Virus record (IMG/VR): IMGVR_UViG_3300042891_000356
Reading direction: 5' to 3' (one strand)
DNA from: an uncultured virus (IMG/VR IMGVR_UViG_3300042891_000356)
Taxonomy: Duplodnaviria > Heunggongvirae > Uroviricota > Caudoviricetes
Length of the DNA: 64,000 nucleotides
Every line of letters starts with the position of its first letter. Position 1 is the first letter of the stretch. Shown piece by piece: positions 1,555 through 11,035 of this stretch. The notes below the pieces were generated by a model. It ran no database searches. It was given only the letters and a program-made list of their open reading frames with translations, and had not been told where the DNA came from. Both the position numbers and the translations under genes were made by a program.

Positions 1555-3270
1555 TTATAAACCAGGAGGTGCAGTAGGTGTTGCTGGTACTGCTGGTTCA
1601 GCACCTGTTGCAGGTAATGCACCTGGTTCTACTCCTGGTGCTGGTTCAGCAGTTAAATCAGGCATTTCTAAATTATCTAAATCACTTTCTATACCTGCTG
1701 GAGTAACATCAACAGCACGTAAACCAGCATCAGTATCAACATTATCCGGAGTAGAATTTCGTTCTTCTGCCCATAGCTCATCATTACGTTGCATTTCTTC
1801 TTCACTTAGATCTAAGTAGCGTTCTAATAAGAAACGTTTACTTAAATATGGTGTTTGTTCCAATGATGTAAATGCTTGTATACGTGCCGCATCAACTTCT
1901 GCTTGACGGTATTTGGCAAAGTTTTGCGGTTCATTTAAGCGTAGTTCAAATAGCTGGCCATCAATGTTAATACCTCTCCAGCGCATGAACATTTTAAACT
2001 CGTTGTCTAGTTTTTCAACTATCATAGTTTGTAAACGCATACAGTATTGATTAAAGCGCCATTCTTGAATTAATGCAGTTGTAGATTTACCATCATTAAA
2101 TGTAGATGCGCTGTCATCACTACCTGTAGGCAAGTAACTGCTAGGAATACGCAGGCCACGGAACATTTTATTAGTAAAGAAACGTAAGTCTGTAATTTCA
2201 CCTAGGTTACTACCGCCTGGTAATGCTTCAACACTTGAACCACGTCCTTCTGCGCCGACTGGAAAGAAAAAATCTTCGTTAGTCGATAGTGGATTGTAAG
2301 TAGCATCCATCATATTTTGTCCGCCACCTGTTTGTGTAGGTATACGACGTTGATGTACTTCATTTTTAATACGATCCACAAAGGCCATGGCCATGTGTGT
2401 GGGCATATTACCTACGTCAATTTTAAATACACGACGTTCCGGTGCACGTTGTACACGATAGATAATAATAGCGTCTTCTAACAGTTCTTTTTGTTTAAAG
2501 ATTTTAAATATGCTTTCAAGAATACTAGTACCAAACGGCCAGTTAACATCTAAGCCTTCTGTTAGACTAATATGCACTACATGTTCTGCATCTAGCACTG
2601 CTTCGTTTTGTGCATGACTAAAGCGTGAACCGCCACTGTACGGAACATTAGGTTGTACGTATGAACCTGCACCGCCACTACCACCTTGTTGTGGGTGATT
2701 CGTATAAGTGTCGCTTGAGCTTAATGCTGTCGCAGTTAAGTTTTGAAAGTTAAGATTAAGATTTTTAATTACGTATTGTTCCGGCTCTTTGCCTTCTGCT
2801 TCATTAACAATAACTTTGATTACACTGCCCATTTCTGTCCAGTATAATTTAAATGTTTCTGGGTCACGTAAGAATACTTGATCACCGTATTTTAATGTAT
2901 TACGTACAAGTTTAAATAGACGTTTGTTTAATTGATTTAGATTAACCCATTGTAGCAATTGATCTTTAAGTAATTTAACTTCGTTATCTGTTGGATCTTC
3001 TTTAAAGAATAAATCAAAGCCTGTACCGTTTTCTGTATTTGGCTGTGTGCAGAATTCTGCAATGATATCAAGAGCTGCATTAACTTCACTGTCCATGTCC
3101 ATTTGTTCATACTGATTATAACGCTCGGTACGATTTGGGTGGCCAATATACACTTCGGGCAATTGGCTTTGATAGTTGCGATAGCTTGGATCTGCTGAAT
3201 TGTTAATTCCACTGATTGGACTTAGTTGTCCGCCAGTGTTTGCGGTTCGAAAGTGCTTTTTCCATGACAT
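1555..3270 (-). CDS. gp20: Portal vertex protein (T4 gp20-like)
   Basis: Motifs LLEDAIIIYRVQRAPERRVFKIDVGNMP, EDFFFP, LPGGSNLGEITDLRFF and LRIPSSYL are characteristic of gp20. Confidence 0.96.
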   Translation of the reverse strand: MSWKKHFRTANTGGQLSPISGINNSADPSYRNYQSQLPEVYIGHPNRTERYNQYEQMDMDSEVNAALDIIAEFCTQPNTENGTGFDLFFKEDPTDNEVKLLKDQLLQWVNLNQLNKRLFKLVRNTLKYGDQVFLRDPETFKLYWTEMGSVIKVIVNEAEGKEPEQYVIKNLNLNFQNLTATALSSSDTYTNHPQQGGSGGAGSYVQPNVPYSGGSRFSHAQNEAVLDAEHVVHISLTEGLDVNWPFGTSILESIFKIFKQKELLEDAIIIYRVQRAPERRVFKIDVGNMPTHMAMAFVDRIKNEVHQRRIPTQTGGGQNMMDATYNPLSTNEDFFFPVGAEGRGSSVEALPGGSNLGEITDLRFFTNKMFRGLRIPSSYLPTGSDDSASTFNDGKSTTALIQEWRFNQYCMRLQTMIVEKLDNEFKMFMRWRGINIDGQLFELRLNEPQNFAKYRQAEVDAARIQAFTSLEQTPYLSKRFLLERYLDLSEEEMQRNDELWAEERNSTPDNVDTDAGLRAVDVTPAGIESDLDNLEMPDLTAEPAPGVEPGALPATGAEPAVPATPTAPPGL

Positions 3271-3304: not shown

Positions 3305-5860
3305 CTAATAGCTGTTCTGTAAAATTCCCGATGTATACTTGTTATTAGTATACATAGCTTCATTCATACGTTTCATTTCTTCAACCATTCTAATAGTATT
3401 TTCTGCCAGGCTCTTAATGTGCTCGTTACTTGCAGAATCTTGCACTACGCTAGCACCGCTACTATTACGCTGCTCTTCTGGATTTTGCAGGTCAGCTACC
3501 CAGCCCTTCATCATTTCAGCCATCCCTTGTGCACCGCCTTGTGCGGTTATGCTGCTGTTTGTTGCCCACGTTGCAGGTTTAAAATCAGATCCTCCTAGAG
3601 TTCCTTCGTAGAGCATGCTTGCAAGATCTTCACTTTCTTCAGCTTTAACTCTTTTAAGCCCTGACATCATGCTTTCTAAAGATCGTATAGCACCTTGCAA
3701 GACTTTAACTGTGTCAGTGTTTGTTGTGTTTGCGGCTGTTATAAACTTTTCAGTTGTTGCGGCACTTATTACACTTGCAGGACCGCTGACAAGCTCAGGC
3801 CCTGCTTCACCTACTATTCCAGTAGCGCCGGCTCGTATTGAACCACCGTTAGCATGTTTACTAATACCTTTCATGTAGTTTTCTATCATGCTAGGTGCTC
3901 GTTCAGGTTGAGCCATGCCCATAGCACGTAGATTTTCCATGCGTTTCTTTTCATCAGCAATCTTAGCTAATTCTGCATTGTATCCTTCGATATCACCGTC
4001 TTCTTTAAGTTGCTGTAGTTCTTTATTTCGTGCTTGTTCTTTATTCCATGCGGCTAAATCTTGTTGATATCGCATTTCGCCAAAGCCGCCGTACTCTTTA
4101 GTATATTGATTTTTTAATATTCTAGTGTTCTTCTCATCAGAAGCTTTTTGTTCTTTAGTTTTACCATAACCATACTCATCCAATGTATCTTGAACACTAC
4201 GCAGCATCTTTTTAGAAAGATTAGCAAAATCCATGATTGCCGGAGTTAATATGTTTTGTAGAGATTTTTTTAACTCCATTGCAGCAGTTTCTGCGTCAAC
4301 TACACCTTTAGTTAATCCATCGGTAGTTTTTTCTTGGTCTTTAGCCGCTTTTTCCCCGGCTTTAATTGCTTCAGGAGTAGCTAGTTTAATTTCATTAATT
4401 GATTGCATAAACGATTTAGCTAAGTCACTTGCGTGACCAGGTATTCCGGCAGCATCTACCAACCCAATGCTAGTTTGATCTAAGAATTCTTTTTGCATTC
4501 TCCCGTTTTCACGAGCATTAATATTACGCATTTTTGCATCATCTAATGTACCTTGTTGATAGTTTTGATATGCTTCTGATACACTATCACGCAGGCCACC
4601 ACTTAAAGCTGCTGCAGATGCACCTTGAGAATTAATCACACTGCCAAAGTTAACCATATCCATAAAATTCTTACGTTGTAACGAATTCATGTTTGAGAAA
4701 GCTCGCATAATTGCGGCTTGTTCTTCTGGAGATTTTTTTGCTAATTTTTGTTGAAACGCAAGTTGATTTGCTTCATCTTGCACTTGAGCCATTTTTTTCT
4801 TAGCATCTTCGCCGGTTATAGCAGCAATGATACGTAAATTTTCTGCATATTTTTGTGTTTGTTCTGCTACTTGCTGATTACTTGCTCTCAGTGGTCCTGA
4901 TGTGCTACCACGCATAGATTTCATTGTTTCTGCAACTAATTCAGCTTGTTCCTCAAACCCGTAACCAAGATTAAGTAAATTTTTCTTCATTGATGCACCA
5001 CCAGCGGTTAGTGCACCGCCAATTCGTTTAGCACCTTCGTTTATACCCAATCCACTAGCACCTATGTTTGCGCTTTGATTCTTTAATACATTAGCAAATA
5101 AATCAACTGTCATGCCTGCTGCACCAGCAGCATTACGCATACCGGTCATACCATCAGCAAACATAGCACCACTAGCACTCATTGAATTAAATGCTTTGTA
5201 TGTTTTTTCTACTTCTACCTGTGCTACGTCAACAGCAAATTTTGCTACTTTGGCAGCAGTTTCCGCAGTTGCGTTTGCAACCATACCCAACCCAGTGGTA
5301 ACCATACCAATTGCTGCAACAAATGGGTTTTTAGCGTCCATCATTTTGCTACCGAATTTCTCAGCGGCGCCACCTGCAGTTTTTATTCCTGCAGCCGCAA
5401 CATCAATTCCTATTTTAAATAAATCGCCTGATAATTGTGCCGCTGATTGATTTGCCTGCAGACCTTTAACAAATGCACCAGCACCCTGAACCATAGATAC
5501 TGTTGATTTGGTTACTCCTTCAGCTACATCTTCCGTAACTCCACGCATCATTGCAGAATGCGCTAAAGCATCACGCTCAGCTAACAATGATTGTTTTTTG
5601 CTTGTTTTTGCAGCATCATCGGTGGTATCACCTAATTCAGACAGTGCATCATTTAATTCGTCTAATACTTTTTTCTGTTGGGCGTAACCAGCTTGACCTT
5701 TCTTAATTTCTTTATTAAGATCTTCAATTTGCTTTTTAAATTCTTTTGTACCTTTGCCGGTAACTTTAATGAAATCACTTAACCCATCAGTGGTCGTACC
5801 AAATCTCTCGGCCATTGCCTGAATTTCTTGTTGCATCGTTGTAAAATCAATATCAGCCAT
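3305..5860 (-). CDS. Tape-measure-like / baseplate hub protein
   Basis: 851 aa, Ala/Gly/Gln/Lys-rich and helical, with no Cys. The C-terminal ANGG...GIVGEAGPELV motif is common in tape measure proteins. Confidence 0.7.
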   Translation of the reverse strand: MADIDFTTMQQEIQAMAERFGTTTDGLSDFIKVTGKGTKEFKKQIEDLNKEIKKGQAGYAQQKKVLDELNDALSELGDTTDDAAKTSKKQSLLAERDALAHSAMMRGVTEDVAEGVTKSTVSMVQGAGAFVKGLQANQSAAQLSGDLFKIGIDVAAAGIKTAGGAAEKFGSKMMDAKNPFVAAIGMVTTGLGMVANATAETAAKVAKFAVDVAQVEVEKTYKAFNSMSASGAMFADGMTGMRNAAGAAGMTVDLFANVLKNQSANIGASGLGINEGAKRIGGALTAGGASMKKNLLNLGYGFEEQAELVAETMKSMRGSTSGPLRASNQQVAEQTQKYAENLRIIAAITGEDAKKKMAQVQDEANQLAFQQKLAKKSPEEQAAIMRAFSNMNSLQRKNFMDMVNFGSVINSQGASAAALSGGLRDSVSEAYQNYQQGTLDDAKMRNINARENGRMQKEFLDQTSIGLVDAAGIPGHASDLAKSFMQSINEIKLATPEAIKAGEKAAKDQEKTTDGLTKGVVDAETAAMELKKSLQNILTPAIMDFANLSKKMLRSVQDTLDEYGYGKTKEQKASDEKNTRILKNQYTKEYGGFGEMRYQQDLAAWNKEQARNKELQQLKEDGDIEGYNAELAKIADEKKRMENLRAMGMAQPERAPSMIENYMKGISKHANGGSIRAGATGIVGEAGPELVSGPASVISAATTEKFITAANTTNTDTVKVLQGAIRSLESMMSGLKRVKAEESEDLASMLYEGTLGGSDFKPATWATNSSITAQGGAQGMAEMMKGWVADLQNPEEQRNSSGASVVQDSASNEHIKSLAENTIRMVEEMKRMNEAMYTNNKYTSGILQNSY

Positions 5861-5887: not shown

Positions 5888-5923
5888 TATAAATATATAA
5901 TATGGTACTATCAATTATTTATA
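5888..5923. promoter_or_regulatory. Pair of opposed late promoters (TATAAATA on + at 5888-5895, on - at 5916-5923)
   Basis: Two exact TATAAATA octamers on opposite strands in the 74 bp gap between divergent genes. Confidence 0.75.
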
Positions 5924-5934
5924 GGAAATAAATC

Positions 5935-6798
5935 ATGGTGAATCAAACTCAGTCATTTGCACCAACTAATCCGTTGGCTAAACACTTTCGGCAACCTGCA
6001 TTATATTTAAAATTGCCTAGTGGCGGAGCACATTGGCCTGAAGGCTCAATTGACCTACCGTTAAACAATGAAATTGCAGTGTTACCTATGAGTACAAAAG
6101 ATGAAATTACACTTAAAACTCCAGATGCATTGCTTAACGGGCAAGGTGTAGTTAATGTAATTGAAAGCTGTTGTCCAAATATTAAGGATGCATGGATGAT
6201 GCCTAGCATCGATGTTGATTCAGCTATTATTGCTATACGTATTGCCAGCTACGGTAATCAAATGGATTTTGGTGCTACCTGTCCAAAATGTAGTGAGACT
6301 AGCGACTATGCTATCGATTTAAGTGTTATATTAAGCAATATTACTGCACCTGTATATACACAAAAGGTTAAAGTTGATGAATTAAAAATTAAACTTAAAC
6401 CACAGGCATATTTCAATGTTAATAAATCTAATATGATTGCGTTCGAAGAACAGCAAATAATGAAAACGTTAGGTCAATTAAACGATAACCCAGAAGAACT
6501 TAAAAAAGTTTTTGATCAACAATTATCTAAAATTATTGATTTAAATGTATCACTATTAACAGGTAGTACTGATTATATTGAAATGCCCGACGGTAGTATT
6601 GTATCCGACGAAGCATTTATCAATGAATTCTACAGTAATTGTGATTCTAATGTAATTAAAACAATTAAGGCTACATTAACAGAATTAGGTAAACAAGGCG
6701 GTATTAAGCCAATCGATGTTAATTGTCATAGCTGTAACGCAGAATTTAGTGTAACGGTTGAATTTGATTTTGCAAGTTTTTTCGCAGTAGGCTCTTAA
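5935..6798 (+). CDS. gp26: Baseplate hub assembly / tail assembly chaperone (T4 gp26-like)
   Basis: LPSGG, MSTKDEITLKTPDALLNG, DVDSAIIAIRIASYG, two CxxC pairs (CPKC, CHSC) and a C-terminal ..SFF match the gp26-like pattern. Confidence 0.75.
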   Translation: MVNQTQSFAPTNPLAKHFRQPALYLKLPSGGAHWPEGSIDLPLNNEIAVLPMSTKDEITLKTPDALLNGQGVVNVIESCCPNIKDAWMMPSIDVDSAIIAIRIASYGNQMDFGATCPKCSETSDYAIDLSVILSNITAPVYTQKVKVDELKIKLKPQAYFNVNKSNMIAFEEQQIMKTLGQLNDNPEELKKVFDQQLSKIIDLNVSLLTGSTDYIEMPDGSIVSDEAFINEFYSNCDSNVIKTIKATLTELGKQGGIKPIDVNCHSCNAEFSVTVEFDFASFFAVGS

Positions 6799-7013
6799 CA
6801 CTAGACAACGATGCAATCGTAGAACTGTTAGACGGCTACGAAAAAGAGATAAGGGCCTATAAAGATGATGCGTTGCGAATTTCCTGGTATATGCGAGGGG
6901 GAATAAGTTACGAAGATGCAATGATGTTAAGTCAACAAGAAAGAGAACTAATATCAAAAATAATTAAAGAAAATATGGAAACAACCAAAAAAAGTGGGAT
7001 GCCATTTTTCTAA
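6777..7013 (+). CDS. gp51-like C-terminal extension of the gp26-like protein, probably reached by -1 frameshift
   Basis: The -1 frame is open from 6768 to TAA 7011-7013 and reads FFRSRLLTLDNDAIVELLDGYEKEIRAYKDDALRISWYMRGGISYEDAMMLSQQERELISKIIKENMETTKKSGMPFF. There is no ATG until 6891. A terminator follows. Confidence 0.7.
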   Translation, partial: FFRSRLLTLDNDAIVELLDGYEKEIRAYKDDALRISWYMRGGISYEDAMMLSQQERELISKIIKENMETTKKSGMPFF

Positions 7014-7022
7014 TAGAATACT

Positions 7023-7046
7023 AAAGCACATTTATTGTGCTTTTTT
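7023..7046 (+). terminator. Rho-independent terminator, possibly bidirectional
   Basis: AAAGCACA-TTTAT-TGTGCTTT followed by further Ts, about 10 nt after the stop at 7013. Confidence 0.75.
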
Positions 7047-7099
7047 ATTGACTATAATATACACCTGTCAAAGTCATTATAACAGCAAAAACTTTAATA

Positions 7100-7600
7100 T
7101 ACTTAAAAGATGTCTAACGACATCTGCATTATCGCTATCGCTCAATGCTTTTTCTTCTAATCTAATTAATTTAAATTACTTTAATACTTACTGTATTGCT
7201 TTTGACTTTAGAACTGCTTCATCCAGATTATAGTCATACTTCACCCATTACAGGCAAAGTAAAACAGAGCGACTTCATCCGAGTGCTTCATCATACTAAC
7301 TAAAAGAGATTATATTCATTTACACGGAAGCGGTCGCCCTGTACTCCCTACTCTTGCTTCTTGCGACGGTTGATGCATAATCCGTAGTTAGCCAAACTAT
7401 GTCATCATATGGGTTGTATCTTTTTCACAGTGCCCAAATCATTCGGTTTTTACACCTAATTTTTATATTGTTGATTCGCTTTTTATAGCACAATACACGG
7501 TCGCCATTCAGTGTGTAGTCTAGTCTACACGTTCCACGTGCGGCCATTACGCGAGCACGATCTCCTCTGAATACAGAACTTAATCTGCAATAGGGCTGTT
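7100..7600 (-). ncRNA. Putative large structured non-coding RNA, family unassigned, boundaries approximate
   Basis: Gap without a credible ORF containing many helices that pair better on the minus strand (G-U wobbles), long-range pairings and an 8-bp loop-to-distal pseudoknot. Details are in the findings. Confidence 0.7.
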
Positions 7601-7701
7601 AAAACATTTACTACTTTACTACGGAGTTGGAATTTGTTTCTATGAGAGTGACTTGGTGTCTGAGAGCTGTGTGTTTATTGTAATACGTTTAGTGTCGTTG
7701 G

Positions 7702-8142
7702 TCAACTGGTTTTATTAATTTTTAAATCTTTTACGGAACCCTTGCCTAATTTAATTTGTATAATACCATTGTAGTTATCTTCCCTCAACAGTACTTCTTC
7801 CATAAATTGATAATGCGCTTCCATGTAGTTAGTTTCACCACGACTTAGACATAGATGTATAATTTCGCGTTTAAACTGTTCCTTGCCTAAAGCTAGGATA
7901 TCTGCTACTAGTCGACTCGAAGAACCCCAATAGTCTTTCCAATCAGTTTCAATTGTTTCTAGACGTTTGTTCTTCTTGCCTTTTAACGGTGGTCTTTTTT
8001 TGATAGTTTTAAAATACTTACGACCCACATAATCGTAGCCGTTAGTAAGATTGGTTATTCTATAAATGAAACCGTAGTATTCACCAATATCCCCCGAATC
8101 GAAAGGTGTACCATTATAGATCCAGGGGAAGTCGTATGTCAT
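7702..8142 (-). CDS. Stand-alone GIY-YIG family endonuclease
   Basis: GFIYRITN...YVGRK, YWGSS, FKREII...E and YNG match GIY-YIG motifs. It is 146 aa with no obvious C-terminal DNA-binding module. Confidence 0.85.
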   Translation of the reverse strand: MTYDFPWIYNGTPFDSGDIGEYYGFIYRITNLTNGYDYVGRKYFKTIKKRPPLKGKKNKRLETIETDWKDYWGSSSRLVADILALGKEQFKREIIHLCLSRGETNYMEAHYQFMEEVLLREDNYNGIIQIKLGKGSVKDLKINKTS

Positions 8143-8149
8143 ACGTTAT

Positions 8150-8335
8150 TTATTTTGCAGCCGCTGCATTTTTCTTCTCTTGGATTTCTGCACGACGAGC
8201 TTTAGTTAACTTACCTAAATCACCTAATGCACCACGAGCACGTGCCGCTGCGGCCTTAACACCCTTAACTTCAAATTTTTCTGATTCTGCTACGTATAGT
8301 TCTACTGCTGCTAAAATATCTTCATGAATTGACAT
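8150..8335 (-). CDS. Small basic histone H1-like (Hc1-type) protein
   Basis: 61 aa with KFEVKGVKAAAARARGALGDLGKL, resembling the Hc1 family core. AAGGAG RBS and TAAATA lie upstream. Confidence 0.65.
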   Translation of the reverse strand: MSIHEDILAAVELYVAESEKFEVKGVKAAAARARGALGDLGKLTKARRAEIQEKKNAAAAK

Positions 8336-8391
8336 GTTTACTTCTCCTTGTTATTATGTGTATTTAACCACCTTGTAGTGGGTGGTAAAAT

Positions 8392-9276
8392 TTAATTAAA
8401 TTCTATTTCTCTCTGCCATTGATTTGTAAAACTTGTACCTAATTTATTTTTAGTACAGGTATTAACGCAAATATTATTGGGATTAAGCGATAACCACGAC
8501 TGCTGTATATTAGTAAAATCGTTGATAGTATGTGAAGTAGTTCCAAGCCAACAACACGGATGCATGATACCTTTAGCTGATATATATAAACTTTGATCTT
8601 TAAGTGCAGCACACTCTATAGTACCACTAGTCACAGTAGGATTTGCCCACCCGGACGGAGATTGTAGGAATGATATTGGGGTACTGTTAAATCTTTTGCT
8701 GACCTTGGCGCGAAACCATTTAAATCCAAGCTCTCTTGCTAATTGCTGTGCTTGGTCAACCTGATGTTCGTTGTGTTTAAACACTAACATCTCCCAATGA
8801 GCAAGCCCACCTGCTTGTATAAATGCCTGTGCATTTGCTATTATTTTATTCCATTCTGTATTGATTCGATAGATATGATTAGTGTCAGCTAACCCATCGA
8901 TACTCCACACTACATATTCTTGCGGAGCAGTACTAGGTTGATGCATAACTGTGGCTAATTCTCTCCACCAGTTAGTAGATCTTAGCCCACCATTTGTATT
9001 CATTCCTAATATTATTTTAGGATTTACACTTCTAAAATATTTAAAAATTTCTAATGTGTGTTTGCCAGCTGCTGGATCACCGTAGTCGCCGCACATAAAC
9101 ATTTTATCAAGATTGCGAATAACATCTTCGCTAACTAATTTTTTAATTTGATCTACAGTAAGATGATGCAAAACATTCTTATTGAACGTTGTATCTGTTT
9201 CTCTCGCACACTGTGGACAGGCCGCATTGCATGCGTCGGTTGGTTCGATATGCAATACTTTAATATTAGATAACAT
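8392..9276 (-). CDS. Radical SAM protein with C-terminal SPASM/twitch-like cysteines
   Basis: CNAACPQC (CxxxCxxC), MCGDYGDP, NTNG, SIDG and C-terminal C..PCC..CxxxC. The start is placed at the ATG overlapping the gp46 end; the track start is 9306. Confidence 0.88.
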   Translation of the reverse strand: MLSNIKVLHIEPTDACNAACPQCARETDTTFNKNVLHHLTVDQIKKLVSEDVIRNLDKMFMCGDYGDPAAGKHTLEIFKYFRSVNPKIILGMNTNGGLRSTNWWRELATVMHQPSTAPQEYVVWSIDGLADTNHIYRINTEWNKIIANAQAFIQAGGLAHWEMLVFKHNEHQVDQAQQLARELGFKWFRAKVSKRFNSTPISFLQSPSGWANPTVTSGTIECAALKDQSLYISAKGIMHPCCWLGTTSHTINDFTNIQQSWLSLNPNNICVNTCTKNKLGTSFTNQWQREIEFN

Positions 9277-11035
9277 CAACATCTGTGCTATATGATGTAA
9301 ACCCATTCTCTTTGGTTACAGTCATAATATTGTTAACTCGACCTGCAAGTTCATCTTTATGCGAAACAAGCCAAATACTTTTCTCATGCTCACGTGACAT
9401 CTTTTTAAGTATGCTCAATGAACTTTCAACTCCACTACTATCCATACCACTATCAATAAGTTCATCAATGAACAATAAGTTAATAGGATTGTATAAACTT
9501 TCCCAAACATCACGGAATGCCCAAGATAAACTTAATATCAAGCGATTACGTTCACCACGTGACAAGTTATCAAAGTCTAACTCACGTCCTAACTCTGTAA
9601 TCTCAACGCTTAAATCATTTAAGAACGTTACTGTGTGTGGCAATCCAATACGATCCAAGTATTGACTTAGACGTGCGTTTAAATGCAACAAGTTTTGATC
9701 AATGATACGTTTACGGATAAAGCTATCTTTGTTGGTTAATAGTTTTAACAAGAAGTCTTGATGTTCTTTTAACTTAACTAGCTCGTTCATAGTAGTATAA
9801 TCAGTTTCTACTAAGGCAGTCTGTGTCATTTCTTCAATTTGTTCAGCATATGGATCAACTTCTGTAGCCTTAGCGGCTAACTGTGTTTCTAAACTGGTAA
9901 TAGAACCCTTGTGATGAAACGCATCTGCTTCTTTATCGTAATATACTCGAGGTTGAGCACCTAGTGGGCCAATTTCTGCCTTAGCACCAGTAAGTGCAAG
10001 CAACTGTGATTCATCTGACAAATATTGATTCGTAGCAGTTTCAAGTGATGCACGTTTAGCCGCTAACACTTCTTCATGCTTGCTATCATGAAAATGCTGT
10101 CCGCAAGCATAACAAGTATGTGCTTCAAGATCAGAAATTTCTTTAGTAACTTTGTCTATGGTTTTTTGTTCACGGGCAATATCTGCTTCACTACGTAATA
10201 TAGCTTTGGATAAATCATCTAGGTCTTTGCGCTGTTGATTGTAAGCAGTAAGCGCAGTATGTGCCGCTAGCTCTTGTTCGATATCAATTTTACGTAGTTC
10301 TGTAAGGGCATTTTGTAGTTTTACTGTGTCATCTGCATGCTTAGTAGTCCACATAGTTTGCCGACGTTTTAAGCTGTCGATTTGCTCTTGAATACGGCCA
10401 TTTGCGTCGTTTATTGCTTTAATATTGAACTCTTCTTGCTGTATTGCATCCTTGGTAGCACGACCCAACTCTTTGAGTTTTTCTGCCTTTTCACTTAATA
10501 CAGTGATGCCAAGTAACTGTTCGATTATTTCACGTTGGTCATTAGCTTTAAGACTAAGGAACGGTTCGGTATAGGTATTAAGCGCAACAATGTGCTTAAA
10601 CATATTATGCGACATACTTAACAAGCGTTCAATTTCAGCCTGCGTTTCTCTACTGTCGCCTTGACTCTCGTCTGTAATTTCTTTTTCTTCGTCGCCTACA
10701 TAAAACTTCATTATGTTAGGCTTACGTCCACGTTCAATCTTATAATCTTGTCCGTTATGTTCAAACTCAACAGTAACCAACATGTTCTTACCATTGGTTT
10801 TATTAATTAAGTTATCACGTTTAATATTAGTTAATGCTTGTCCAAACAGACTGTAGCTTAAGGCATTGATGATAGTTGTTTTACCAGTGCCGTTACGTGC
10901 GCCACTGTCATCACCACCTAAGTCAACGTTGACTCCTAATACTAACGTGAGATCGTTACGGTCAAACTCAACCGCTTGCGTAGCATTACCTACGCTCATA
11001 AAGTTTTTAACTGTGAGATTTTTTATTTTAAACAT
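9266..11035 (-). CDS. gp46: Recombination endonuclease ATPase subunit (gp46 / SbcC / Rad50-like)
   Basis: Walker A NGTGKTT, coiled coil with CYAC zinc hook, signature LSRGE, Walker B LLFIDELID and H-loop VSHK. Confidence 0.96.
   Translation of the reverse strand: MFKIKNLTVKNFMSVGNATQAVEFDRNDLTLVLGVNVDLGGDDSGARNGTGKTTIINALSYSLFGQALTNIKRDNLINKTNGKNMLVTVEFEHNGQDYKIERGRKPNIMKFYVGDEEKEITDESQGDSRETQAEIERLLSMSHNMFKHIVALNTYTEPFLSLKANDQREIIEQLLGITVLSEKAEKLKELGRATKDAIQQEEFNIKAINDANGRIQEQIDSLKRRQTMWTTKHADDTVKLQNALTELRKIDIEQELAAHTALTAYNQQRKDLDDLSKAILRSEADIAREQKTIDKVTKEISDLEAHTCYACGQHFHDSKHEEVLAAKRASLETATNQYLSDESQLLALTGAKAEIGPLGAQPRVYYDKEADAFHHKGSITSLETQLAAKATEVDPYAEQIEEMTQTALVETDYTTMNELVKLKEHQDFLLKLLTNKDSFIRKRIIDQNLLHLNARLSQYLDRIGLPHTVTFLNDLSVEITELGRELDFDNLSRGERNRLILSLSWAFRDVWESLYNPINLLFIDELIDSGMDSSGVESSLSILKKMSREHEKSIWLVSHKDELAGRVNNIMTVTKENGFTSYSTDVDVI

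Follow-up and report, generated by a model that had tools for sequence, protein, structure and literature searches.

A large structured RNA of freshwater T4-like phages and the exchangeable small-nuclease gene upstream of it

Introduction

When a compact nuclease gene and a large structured RNA adjoin one another on the same strand of a phage genome, do they form one RNA-protein system, or are they separable genes that are simply neighbors? The question is raised by positions 7,100 to 8,391 of IMG/VR record IMGVR_UViG_3300042891_000356, a stretch of 64,000 nucleotides (nt), here called the window, from an uncultivated freshwater (lake-water) T4-like phage. There the minus strand encodes a 61-amino-acid (aa) Hc1-like protein, a 146-aa GIY-YIG nuclease and, beyond the nuclease, a structured RNA. 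Compact nucleases with HNH or RuvC domains (IscB, IsrB, TnpB) are encoded beside large structured RNAs in the OMEGA/HEARO systems. An earlier interpretation of this locus, made from its letters without database searches (the sequence-only reading), took the three elements as one putative unit that might be a GIY-YIG ribonucleoprotein, RNA-guided or RNA-scaffolded, or else a late-expressed module for DNA processing or packaging. We favor, at a probability of roughly 60%, a different answer: that the RNA is an autonomous new RNA gene which closes an operon at its 3' end, and that the slot before it, for small nucleases, is prone to swaps.

Results

The structured RNA

Folding of the non-coding stretch against shuffled sequences gave a z score of -3.0 on the minus strand and -0.9 on the plus strand. 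Searches with the nuclease protein led to a first set of relatives, 80 viral-contig loci, and in 75 of these the same non-coding sequence, down to about 68% identity, lies 3' of the nuclease gene; the other five end within about 100 nt. A global alignment of 76 diverse RNAs was gappy (983 columns) with a poor consensus fold, and the helix model was built instead on 44 distinct sequences (alignment A1) of clade A, one of two GIY-YIG-associated clades described below; 5' domains of type B and of the Polynucleobacter-1 type, also described below, lie outside the model. The RNAalifold consensus of these 44 sequences comprises 80 pairs; compensatory double changes are seen in 32, against 5–9 in controls whose pairing partners were slid by 1–3 columns. 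Paired cells amounted to 98.7% against 33–43% in the same controls, the covariation score was 0.334 against at most 0.082, and none of 500 shuffles matched the observed values. Many invariant G-U pairs are compatible with the minus strand only. The sequence-only reading had placed a structured RNA on the strand of the nuclease, and the folding scores, the covariation and the G-U pairs bear this out. Its presence stands; the proposed reach of the RNA to position 7700 does not, since the conserved core, about 494 nt with 15 predicted helices, spans about 7107-7600 (minus strand). Predicted long-range helices would join 7439-7433 to 7227-7221 and 7353-7350 to 7284-7281.

The RNA ends 3' in a terminal hairpin (7125-7108) followed by UUUU. 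Its variable parts are internal, namely a clade-specific insertion at about 7463-7502 and an AT-rich linker at about 7183-7222, and many of its unpaired nucleotides are invariant. As a separate observation, a hairpin at 7265-7233 is flanked by conserved motifs that are nearly alike, ACUCGGAUGAAG and AUCUGGAUGAAG (at 7281-7292 and at 7221-7232 of the minus strand), and that covary across relatives; the pair may be a symmetric tertiary or ligand-binding module. In the RNA copy of locus L151, the two repeated motifs (CGGAUGAAG-like) are altered in concert, which suggests that they act as a pair.

A protein-coding role for this stretch was considered and rejected: variability by phase (0.157, 0.161 and 0.149) shows no 3-nt periodicity, and among 76 homologues the median longest open reading frame (ORF) is 37.5 aa, with no conserved ORF. 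Rfam 15 had no match in the window at gathering score, and a permissive scan of 6800-8500 gave only chance-level matches (E >= 0.1, 16–18 bits). Neither Rfam nor ARAGORN supports an identity as a group I or group II intron, a transfer-messenger RNA (tmRNA), RNase P, a riboswitch or a ribozyme. In the limited collection of literature that was searched, we found no account of this RNA or of a GIY-YIG/RNA pairing. It is a large structured non-coding phage RNA of a family absent from Rfam, and it is the part of the locus that looks new.

Separate distribution of nuclease and RNA

For wider searches, a 31-nt degenerate core motif with 25 fixed positions was derived from the RNA alignment. This motif listed at least 120 RNA loci on viral contigs (about 250 estimated) and at least 120 matches in metagenomes (about 200 estimated). 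From the 120 listed viral-contig loci we set aside 48 with less than 1000 nt of upstream sequence and nine duplicates, leaving 63 to be scored; from the 120 listed metagenome loci we set aside 53 that were too short, 19 identical to viral-contig RNAs and two duplicates, leaving 46. The core pattern was matched in phages whose proteins are only 30–40% identical. It occurred in no contig of the representative genomes of 185,579 bacterial and archaeal species (one genome each). When 50,697 isolate phage records were searched with the RNA by blastn, the search returned nothing at E 1e-5 and, when relaxed, only chance matches of 26–41 nt (E >= 0.5).

The nuclease family is found by tblastn in 462 of the isolate phage records, always at less than 60% identity; these are mostly T4-like cyanophages, together with Melnitz, phages of the phiM12/phiN3 type and others. 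In Melnitz, P-SSM4, phiN3, vB_OspM_OC, C48C1 and B23, protein genes lie within about 150 nt 3' of the nuclease gene, and the neighborhoods are unrelated. The core motif, with up to three mismatches allowed, was found in none of five complete nuclease-bearing genomes.

The RNA in turn follows more than one kind of gene. A GIY-YIG gene stands directly 5' of it in 48 of the 63 listed viral-contig loci and is separated from it by 0.5–1.9 kb of inserted genes in eight more; in six the GIY-YIG gene is replaced by one for a PDDEXK_15 protein (about 173 aa, PF24608, E 1e-21 to 1e-24), and one locus (L151) has neither nuclease. The 46 listed metagenome loci divide similarly into 33 with a direct GIY-YIG gene, five with an insertion, six with PDDEXK_15 and two with neither; these last two have, within the 1.5 kb covered, a radical-SAM gene and a gene for a 130-aa protein instead of a nuclease. 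A GIY-YIG gene is present somewhere 5' of the RNA in 56 of the 63 and 38 of the 46 listed loci, so that its presence there is not sporadic. A 250-kb contig carries PDDEXK_15 and no SegE-type gene and a 177-kb contig the reverse, both contigs being fragments.

The genes inserted before the RNA include those for NUMOD3 homing endonucleases (L024, L033), for unknown proteins, and for a B12-radical-SAM protein with a 130-aa protein (L152). Pairs of NUMOD3 genes flank the Hc1-nuclease genes (L024:2418-2996 and 3552-4250; L033:2036-2773 and 3442-4155), and two such genes at each locus mark the region as a homing hotspot. In L151 a very divergent RNA (2257-2781, minus strand of the locus) lies among genes for a PrkA kinase, BLUF and EAL proteins; its 115-kb viral contig has no SegE, PDDEXK_15 or T4 hub match, and only weak matches to Gp23.

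We also noted a family of about 130 aa directly 5' of the RNA in L152:2731-3123 (-), L233:901-1305 (+), L279:1722-2111 (-) and, in part, L188. It always follows a radical-SAM gene, its members share 31–71% identity, and it has no Pfam or PHROG match; it does not look like a nuclease.

The sequence-only reading had proposed comparing co-occurrence and synteny across phage genomes and had named independent distribution as the outcome that speaks against a ribonucleoprotein. In that comparison the nuclease and the RNA are distributed independently, with the nuclease in 462 records without detectable RNA and the RNA with PDDEXK_15 or no nuclease in seven of the 63 listed loci; this argues against an RNA-guided or RNA-scaffolded GIY-YIG ribonucleoprotein. 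What survives of the single unit is a conserved neighborhood; independent distribution in both directions speaks against an obligate module.

History of the slot

A tree of 76 RNAs requires at least three changes of upstream-gene state. The PDDEXK_15 loci occupy three places on it, each outside both large GIY-YIG-associated clades. These two clades, A and B, are only 35–41% identical to each other in their GIY-YIG proteins, and each coheres on the protein tree. In the free GIY-YIG tree, the protein of Melnitz, which has no RNA, groups with clade B, inside the RNA-adjacent set, with support 96/94.

The T4-type baseplate hub gene that lies beyond the RNA allows a second comparison. On the hub tree the PDDEXK loci fall among clade-A hubs, yet they lie outside the clade-A group on the RNA tree; for these loci an approximately unbiased (AU) test did not reject agreement of hub and RNA (p 0.134). 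Two loci, L121 and L146, have a clade-A nuclease and RNA but a clade-B hub (support 100), which may be a sign that RNA and hub gene have been separated by recombination.

Four loci match an Rfam family at the 5' end of their RNA. This is Polynucleobacter-1 (RF01718, gathering score 37 bits), which is hit at 39.2 bits by L089 (2671-2810, -), L097 (2671-2810, -) and L141 (2222-2361, +), and at 38.5 bits by L175 (18-149, +). A PDDEXK_15 gene stands 5' of the RNA in the first three; L175 is too short to tell.

Transcription

Assembled contigs (not reads) from RNA libraries of three fresh- or lake-water studies cover the Hc1-nuclease-RNA stretch, and contigs of two metatranscriptome studies bridge the nuclease gene and the RNA. 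One RNA-library contig of 1590 nt spans 7145-8289 and another bridges 7279-7808. The bridging contigs are compatible with one transcription unit, and Hc1, nuclease and RNA are probably co-transcribed. A scan of 6700-8500 for terminators agrees with the earlier claim that no obvious terminator separates nuclease and RNA: nothing terminator-like was seen from the nuclease stop to the RNA, and the sole minus-strand site is at 7043..7023.

Contigs from two studies end at 7706 and 7708; this weakly suggests a boundary where the nuclease gene ends, and polymorphism in the spacer that follows explains it as well. Four RNA-library runs have no contig on 8432-8851, within the radical-SAM gene, and few on 6500-6750; this pattern may reflect differential expression or equally strain differences, and we do not use it as evidence.

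The GIY-YIG nuclease

The nuclease gene (7702..8142, minus strand) starts 7 nt after the Hc1 stop, with no visible ribosome-binding site. Its product matches Pfam PF19835 (SegE_GIY-YIG) over residues 7-123 at 123.6 bits (cut-off 25; E 7.1e-36) and phrog_447 at E 2.5e-39, with secondary PHROG matches to homing endonucleases; phrog_447 is often mislabelled 'NAD synthetase' and corresponds to T4-GC 213 in the P-SSM4 record. The tyrosines of the GIY and YIG motifs (Y27, Y38/G40) and residues R92, E108 and N125 are invariant in eight homologues, including those of phages without the RNA, and in 20 encoded at RNA loci. The conserved Glu and Asn presumably belong to the GIY-YIG active site, going by the roles assigned in work on I-TevI.

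An AlphaFold model of the protein has a mean predicted local distance difference test (pLDDT) score of 85.4; its secondary structure ends at residue 114, and pLDDT is about 55 after about residue 130. The top four VIA-align matches of the model are all GIY-YIG proteins: the I-TevI catalytic domain (Z 8.8, root-mean-square deviation 2.5, 82 aligned), PD-T4-3 (7.2), the UvrC N-domain (5.1) and T4 EndoII (5.1). Foldseek likewise placed I-TevI first, with probability 0.96 but an E of 0.2, a weak match, and a sequence search of solved structures with the nuclease gave no meaningful match. A Pfam profile search detected no NUMOD, helix-turn-helix (HTH) or other DNA-binding module, and none is apparent in the predicted model; the sequence-only reading was right that the NUMOD/HTH specificity tail is missing. 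It had also drawn attention to a basic insertion. This insertion is present, and it is a trait of the whole family: it carries invariant lysines in the Melnitz, phiN3 and P-SSM4 homologues too, and so does not set this gene apart. Contacts to DNA are probably made by this basic, hairpin-like element.

Judged by its residues and its predicted fold, the nuclease looks active: a catalytically intact DNA endonuclease with a single domain, from a phage family that is both large and old. To our knowledge GIY-YIG enzymes are DNA nucleases and not RNA nucleases, and we infer the same substrate here.

The Hc1-like protein and the late-promoter claim

The Hc1-like gene (8150..8335, minus strand) has a strong AAGGAG ribosome-binding site. 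Its 61-aa product matches PF07432 over positions 5-56 of the 57 in the profile (E 6.4e-9; 36 bits, cut-off 23.5) and has an isoelectric point of 9.45, with an acidic N-terminal and a basic C-terminal half; a basic Hc1-like protein is thus what the sequence-only reading had said it was. As a member of a unit the protein is inconstant. It is encoded within 2.5 kb 5' of the RNA in 33 of the 63 listed loci and in none of the listed clade-B loci. Hc1 occurs in two of the 50,697 isolate phage records, and in one of these, a marine T4-like virus, it lies between the PhoH/PDDEXK_1 and gp59/gp32 genes, with no GIY-YIG gene or RNA nearby. We regard Hc1 as a likely optional passenger that, to judge from its family name alone, may bind DNA.

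Late expression had been proposed from a TAAATA motif (8366..8361). This forms part of GTTAAATA (8361..8368, minus strand), 25 nt 5' of the Hc1 start and directly 3' of a CCACC-N8-GGTGG hairpin (8368..8385, minus strand) that stands 3' of the radical-SAM stop and is terminator-like without a U run. A T4-type late promoter is defined by TATAAATA about 10 nt 5' of the start site, and the motif here is GTTAAATA, not TATAAATA. In the window GTTAAATA occurs four times against 7.4 expected, TAAATA alone is not above chance, and canonical TATAAATA is depleted, with four occurrences against 11.9 expected; TATAAATA does stand 40 and 56 nt 5' of the hub gene and of a tape-measure-like structural gene. 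Upstream of 61 distinct Hc1 homologues, TATAAATA was found in none, TTAAATA in 17 and GTATAAT in 31, and the CCACC/GGTGG hairpin is kept together with the following TTAAATA in 17 of the 61. On these counts late expression is unsupported, though conceivable. GTTAAATA could still be a promoter element, though not a canonical T4 late promoter.

The spacer and the proposed guide

Between the nuclease stop and the RNA lies a spacer (7601..7701, minus strand) that exists only in close relatives of the window; in most relatives no more than about 10 nt separate the stop codon of the preceding gene from the RNA, and positions 7597-7718 are missing from one RNA-library contig. A NUMOD3 homing endonuclease gene sits between spacer and RNA in L024 and L030, where the spacer stays with the nuclease gene. 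The segment 7600-7700, put forward earlier as guide-like, is thus a clade-specific spacer outside the conserved RNA that is kept with the nuclease upon insertion.

A consensus scan found a sigma-70-like promoter, TTGACC N17 TACAAT, at 7677..7705 (minus strand; 10 of 12 matches), overlapping the nuclease stop codon. A promoter here may allow transcription of the RNA to begin separately, near 7670, in this clade. RNA-library contigs extend 5' of it, so that this promoter, if used, is not the sole source of transcripts.

Gene order and boundaries

The minus strand of the window reads, in order, an SbcC/gp46-like ATPase gene (9266-11035), a radical-SAM gene (8392-9306), the Hc1-like gene, the GIY-YIG gene and then about 680 nt without a conserved ORF. 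The coordinates that the sequence-only reading gave for TAAATA, the 61-aa protein and the 146-aa gene 7 nt downstream were all confirmed. On the far side, a bidirectional intrinsic terminator (7023..7043, both strands; 8-bp stem, T runs on each strand) is common to this operon and to the converging 46-aa gene and T4-type baseplate hub gene. ARAGORN found no tRNA or tmRNA in the 64-kb window, NCBIfam gave no match for the three proteins, and tblastn with three PDDEXK_15 proteins found nothing within the window.

The 46-aa ORF (6873-7013, plus strand), between the hub gene and the terminator, is the RNA's most constant downstream neighbor: where the sequence beyond the RNA reaches far enough it is almost always present, at 50–85% identity, and it has no PHROG match. 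Radical-SAM genes of several architectures recur 5' of the Hc1/nuclease/RNA block (8392-9306 in the window, L089, L152, L233 and L279), among them a B12-binding type and one of 544 aa that weakly matches short-chain dehydrogenases. Farther off, two TATAAATA late promoters stand back to back, at 5888-5895 (+) and 5916-5923 (-), in the 74-nt gap between the divergent hub gene and an 851-aa tape-measure-like gene.

Discussion

We read the locus as three adjacent, separable genes that would lie at the 3' end of a minus-strand operon. The RNA would be transcribed as the operon's terminal element, by read-through from whichever gene lies upstream. The slot before it has been occupied by the unrelated PDDEXK_15 as well as by GIY-YIG proteins of two deeply diverged lineages, and NUMOD3 genes have invaded it repeatedly; such a pattern would be expected if free-standing nuclease genes had settled next to a gene of very high conservation, or if functionally equivalent housekeeping nucleases had replaced one another in place. 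Since the nuclease occurs in hundreds of phages without an adjacent RNA, we infer that here too it works without the RNA and that the two are functionally independent. A nuclease for DNA processing, the alternative that the sequence-only reading had offered, is possible.

Several points weigh against this interpretation. First, the contigs compared are mostly fragments, and RNA-library contigs cannot prove transcription, ends or strand. Second, a small same-strand nuclease stands directly 5' of the RNA in 54 of the 63 listed loci and within 2 kb in 62; in the metagenomes it is directly 5' in 39 of the 46 listed loci and within about 1.3 kb in 44. Such occupancy, across lineages whose proteins are only 35–40% identical, makes a pure chance neighborhood an insufficient account, and the swap to a second nuclease fold could equally mean that the RNA needs a nuclease partner. 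Third, the 5' domain of the RNA tracks the type of nuclease. Type A occurs with GIY-YIG clade A only; type B occurs with GIY-YIG clade B, with most PDDEXK_15 loci and in L151; and a third form, the one that matches Polynucleobacter-1, belongs to the L089 lineage of PDDEXK_15 loci. Autonomy of the RNA leaves both the near-constant occupancy of the slot and this correlation unexplained. Fourth, an AU test did not reject monophyly of the RNA-adjacent GIY-YIG proteins taken together (p 0.241). Finally, the nuclease family is largely inherited vertically, and this, together with the absence of a DNA-recognition domain, makes it a misfit as a classical homing endonuclease.

The last point bears on a selfish version of the same interpretation, which we consider possible but doubtful. 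Here the slot would hold degenerate or minimal free-standing homing endonucleases that cut in or beside the conserved RNA gene of competitors, and any nuclease family gaining this specificity would come to settle there. The SegE-type domain with its secondary PHROG matches to homing endonucleases, the insertion of genuine NUMOD3 homing endonuclease genes at these very junctions, the nuclease swaps on the RNA tree and the hint of RNA-hub recombination in L121 and L146 all fit. Homing endonuclease genes are, however, typically sporadic, whereas this slot is nearly never empty (nuclease present in 62 of the 63 listed loci) and its protein tracks the phage lineage; moreover, the AU test keeps agreement with the hub tree for the PDDEXK loci (p 0.13). 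A precedent is T4 SegB, given in PMC2988022 (Table 1) as a free-standing GIY-YIG enzyme whose gene lies between tRNA genes and whose target is the tRNA intergenic region. The same source attributes the specificity of phage homing endonucleases to their DNA-binding modules, and the nuclease here has none.

Somewhat less probable still, and in our view unlikely, is a functional pair without guiding, in which the RNA would be a scaffold, an inhibitor or antidote, or a substrate that the nuclease excises from the co-transcript, and in which nuclease folds were recruited repeatedly. RNA antitoxins, after all, hold toxic partners in check. The unexplained occupancy and the tracking by the 5' domain are what keep such a partnership alive: a same-strand nuclease gene immediately precedes the RNA in 54 of the 63 and 39 of the 46 listed loci, two unrelated folds and two deep GIY-YIG lineages share one slot, the RNA usually begins within about 10 nt of the nuclease stop, its 5'-domain type correlates with the nuclease type, and RNA-library contigs bridge both. 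A partnership sits poorly, however, with a GIY-YIG family that occurs in isolate phage genomes without detectable RNA, with inserted genes tolerated between the partners in eight of 63 listed loci, with an RNA in L151 that has no adjacent nuclease and no SegE or PDDEXK_15 match in 115 kb, and with the general knowledge that GIY-YIG enzymes are nucleases of DNA rather than RNA. There is perhaps one chance in several that we are dealing with a class of large phage RNA that requires a small upstream endonuclease of any fold, for scaffolding, as antidote or for nuclease-dependent maturation; if so, GIY-YIG (twice) and PDDEXK_15 would have been recruited independently to one RNA whose modular 5' domain changes with the partner.

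An OMEGA/HEARO-like, RNA-guided GIY-YIG nuclease with a variable guide beside a conserved scaffold is very improbable: adjacency on the same strand and the lack of a DNA-recognition domain in the protein are all that speak for it, whereas the proposed guide at 7600-7700 is a clade-specific spacer that forms no part of the conserved RNA and goes with the nuclease gene upon insertion, the variable parts of the RNA (about 7463-7502 and 7183-7222) are internal and not terminal, the locus is fixed in the genome and does not lie at the end of a transposon (transposon context was not searched for), and the nuclease is distributed independently of the RNA and can be swapped for PDDEXK_15.

We thus retain the autonomous RNA gene behind a swap-prone slot as our preferred interpretation. 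An RNA of about 500 nt with rRNA-like conservation, found in lake metatranscriptomes, is among the few large phage RNAs without an assigned role. Either the slot is a clean natural case in which nucleases turn over next to a conserved RNA gene, or it betrays a partnership of nuclease and RNA; it also illustrates that a compact nuclease beside a big RNA is insufficient for calling an RNA-guided system.

Comparison with known systems

The nuclease itself is closest to the phrog_447/T4-GC 213 proteins of Kyanoviridae and relatives, with 42–46% identity to those of Melnitz, P-SSM4 and phiN3, the same invariant residues and the same basic insertion. It differs in its setting: in the isolates protein genes come next and the RNA motif was not found, whereas in the window, and in an estimated 250 or so viral-contig stretches, the RNA comes after the gene. 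Like T4 SegB and other Seg genes, the window gene occupies an intergenic slot beside a stable RNA that other homing genes invade; unlike the Seg enzymes, its 146-aa product is a catalytic domain only, nearly always present and lineage-tracking. The Hc1-like protein resembles chlamydial Hc1 in fitting its profile and in its basic C-terminal half, but it is phage-encoded, its 61 aa are little more than the 57-position profile, and it is rare in isolate phages.

With OMEGA/HEARO systems the locus shares a compact nuclease gene that adjoins a large structured RNA on the same strand. It departs from them in that the nuclease is GIY-YIG and not RuvC or HNH, there is no terminal guide, the parts are separable, and the RNA has no match to the Rfam HEARO model. 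The RNA is more reminiscent of ROOL and GOLLD, being about 500 nt long, with invariant unpaired nucleotides, apparently phage-encoded and without a constant protein partner; it matches neither of their Rfam models, however, and the 64-kb window has no tRNA genes. GOLLD and ROOL are described in PMC12286853 as forming RNA-only homo-oligomers; oligomerization of the window RNA would, by analogy, be pure speculation.

A link to a described RNA family is through Polynucleobacter-1. As presented in Weinberg et al. 2010 (PMC2864571), this motif has 16 members, one Polynucleobacter genome among them, comes from Burkholderiales and fresh water or estuary, and is possibly cis-regulatory. The likeness is confined to the 5' domain of the L089 lineage (L089, L097, L141 and L175); the window RNA does not match, and the motif extends over just 141 nt of the RNA, at its 5' end. 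The match may hint at a Polynucleobacter-like host, and in phages the Polynucleobacter-1 motif may be the head of an RNA of about 500 nt.

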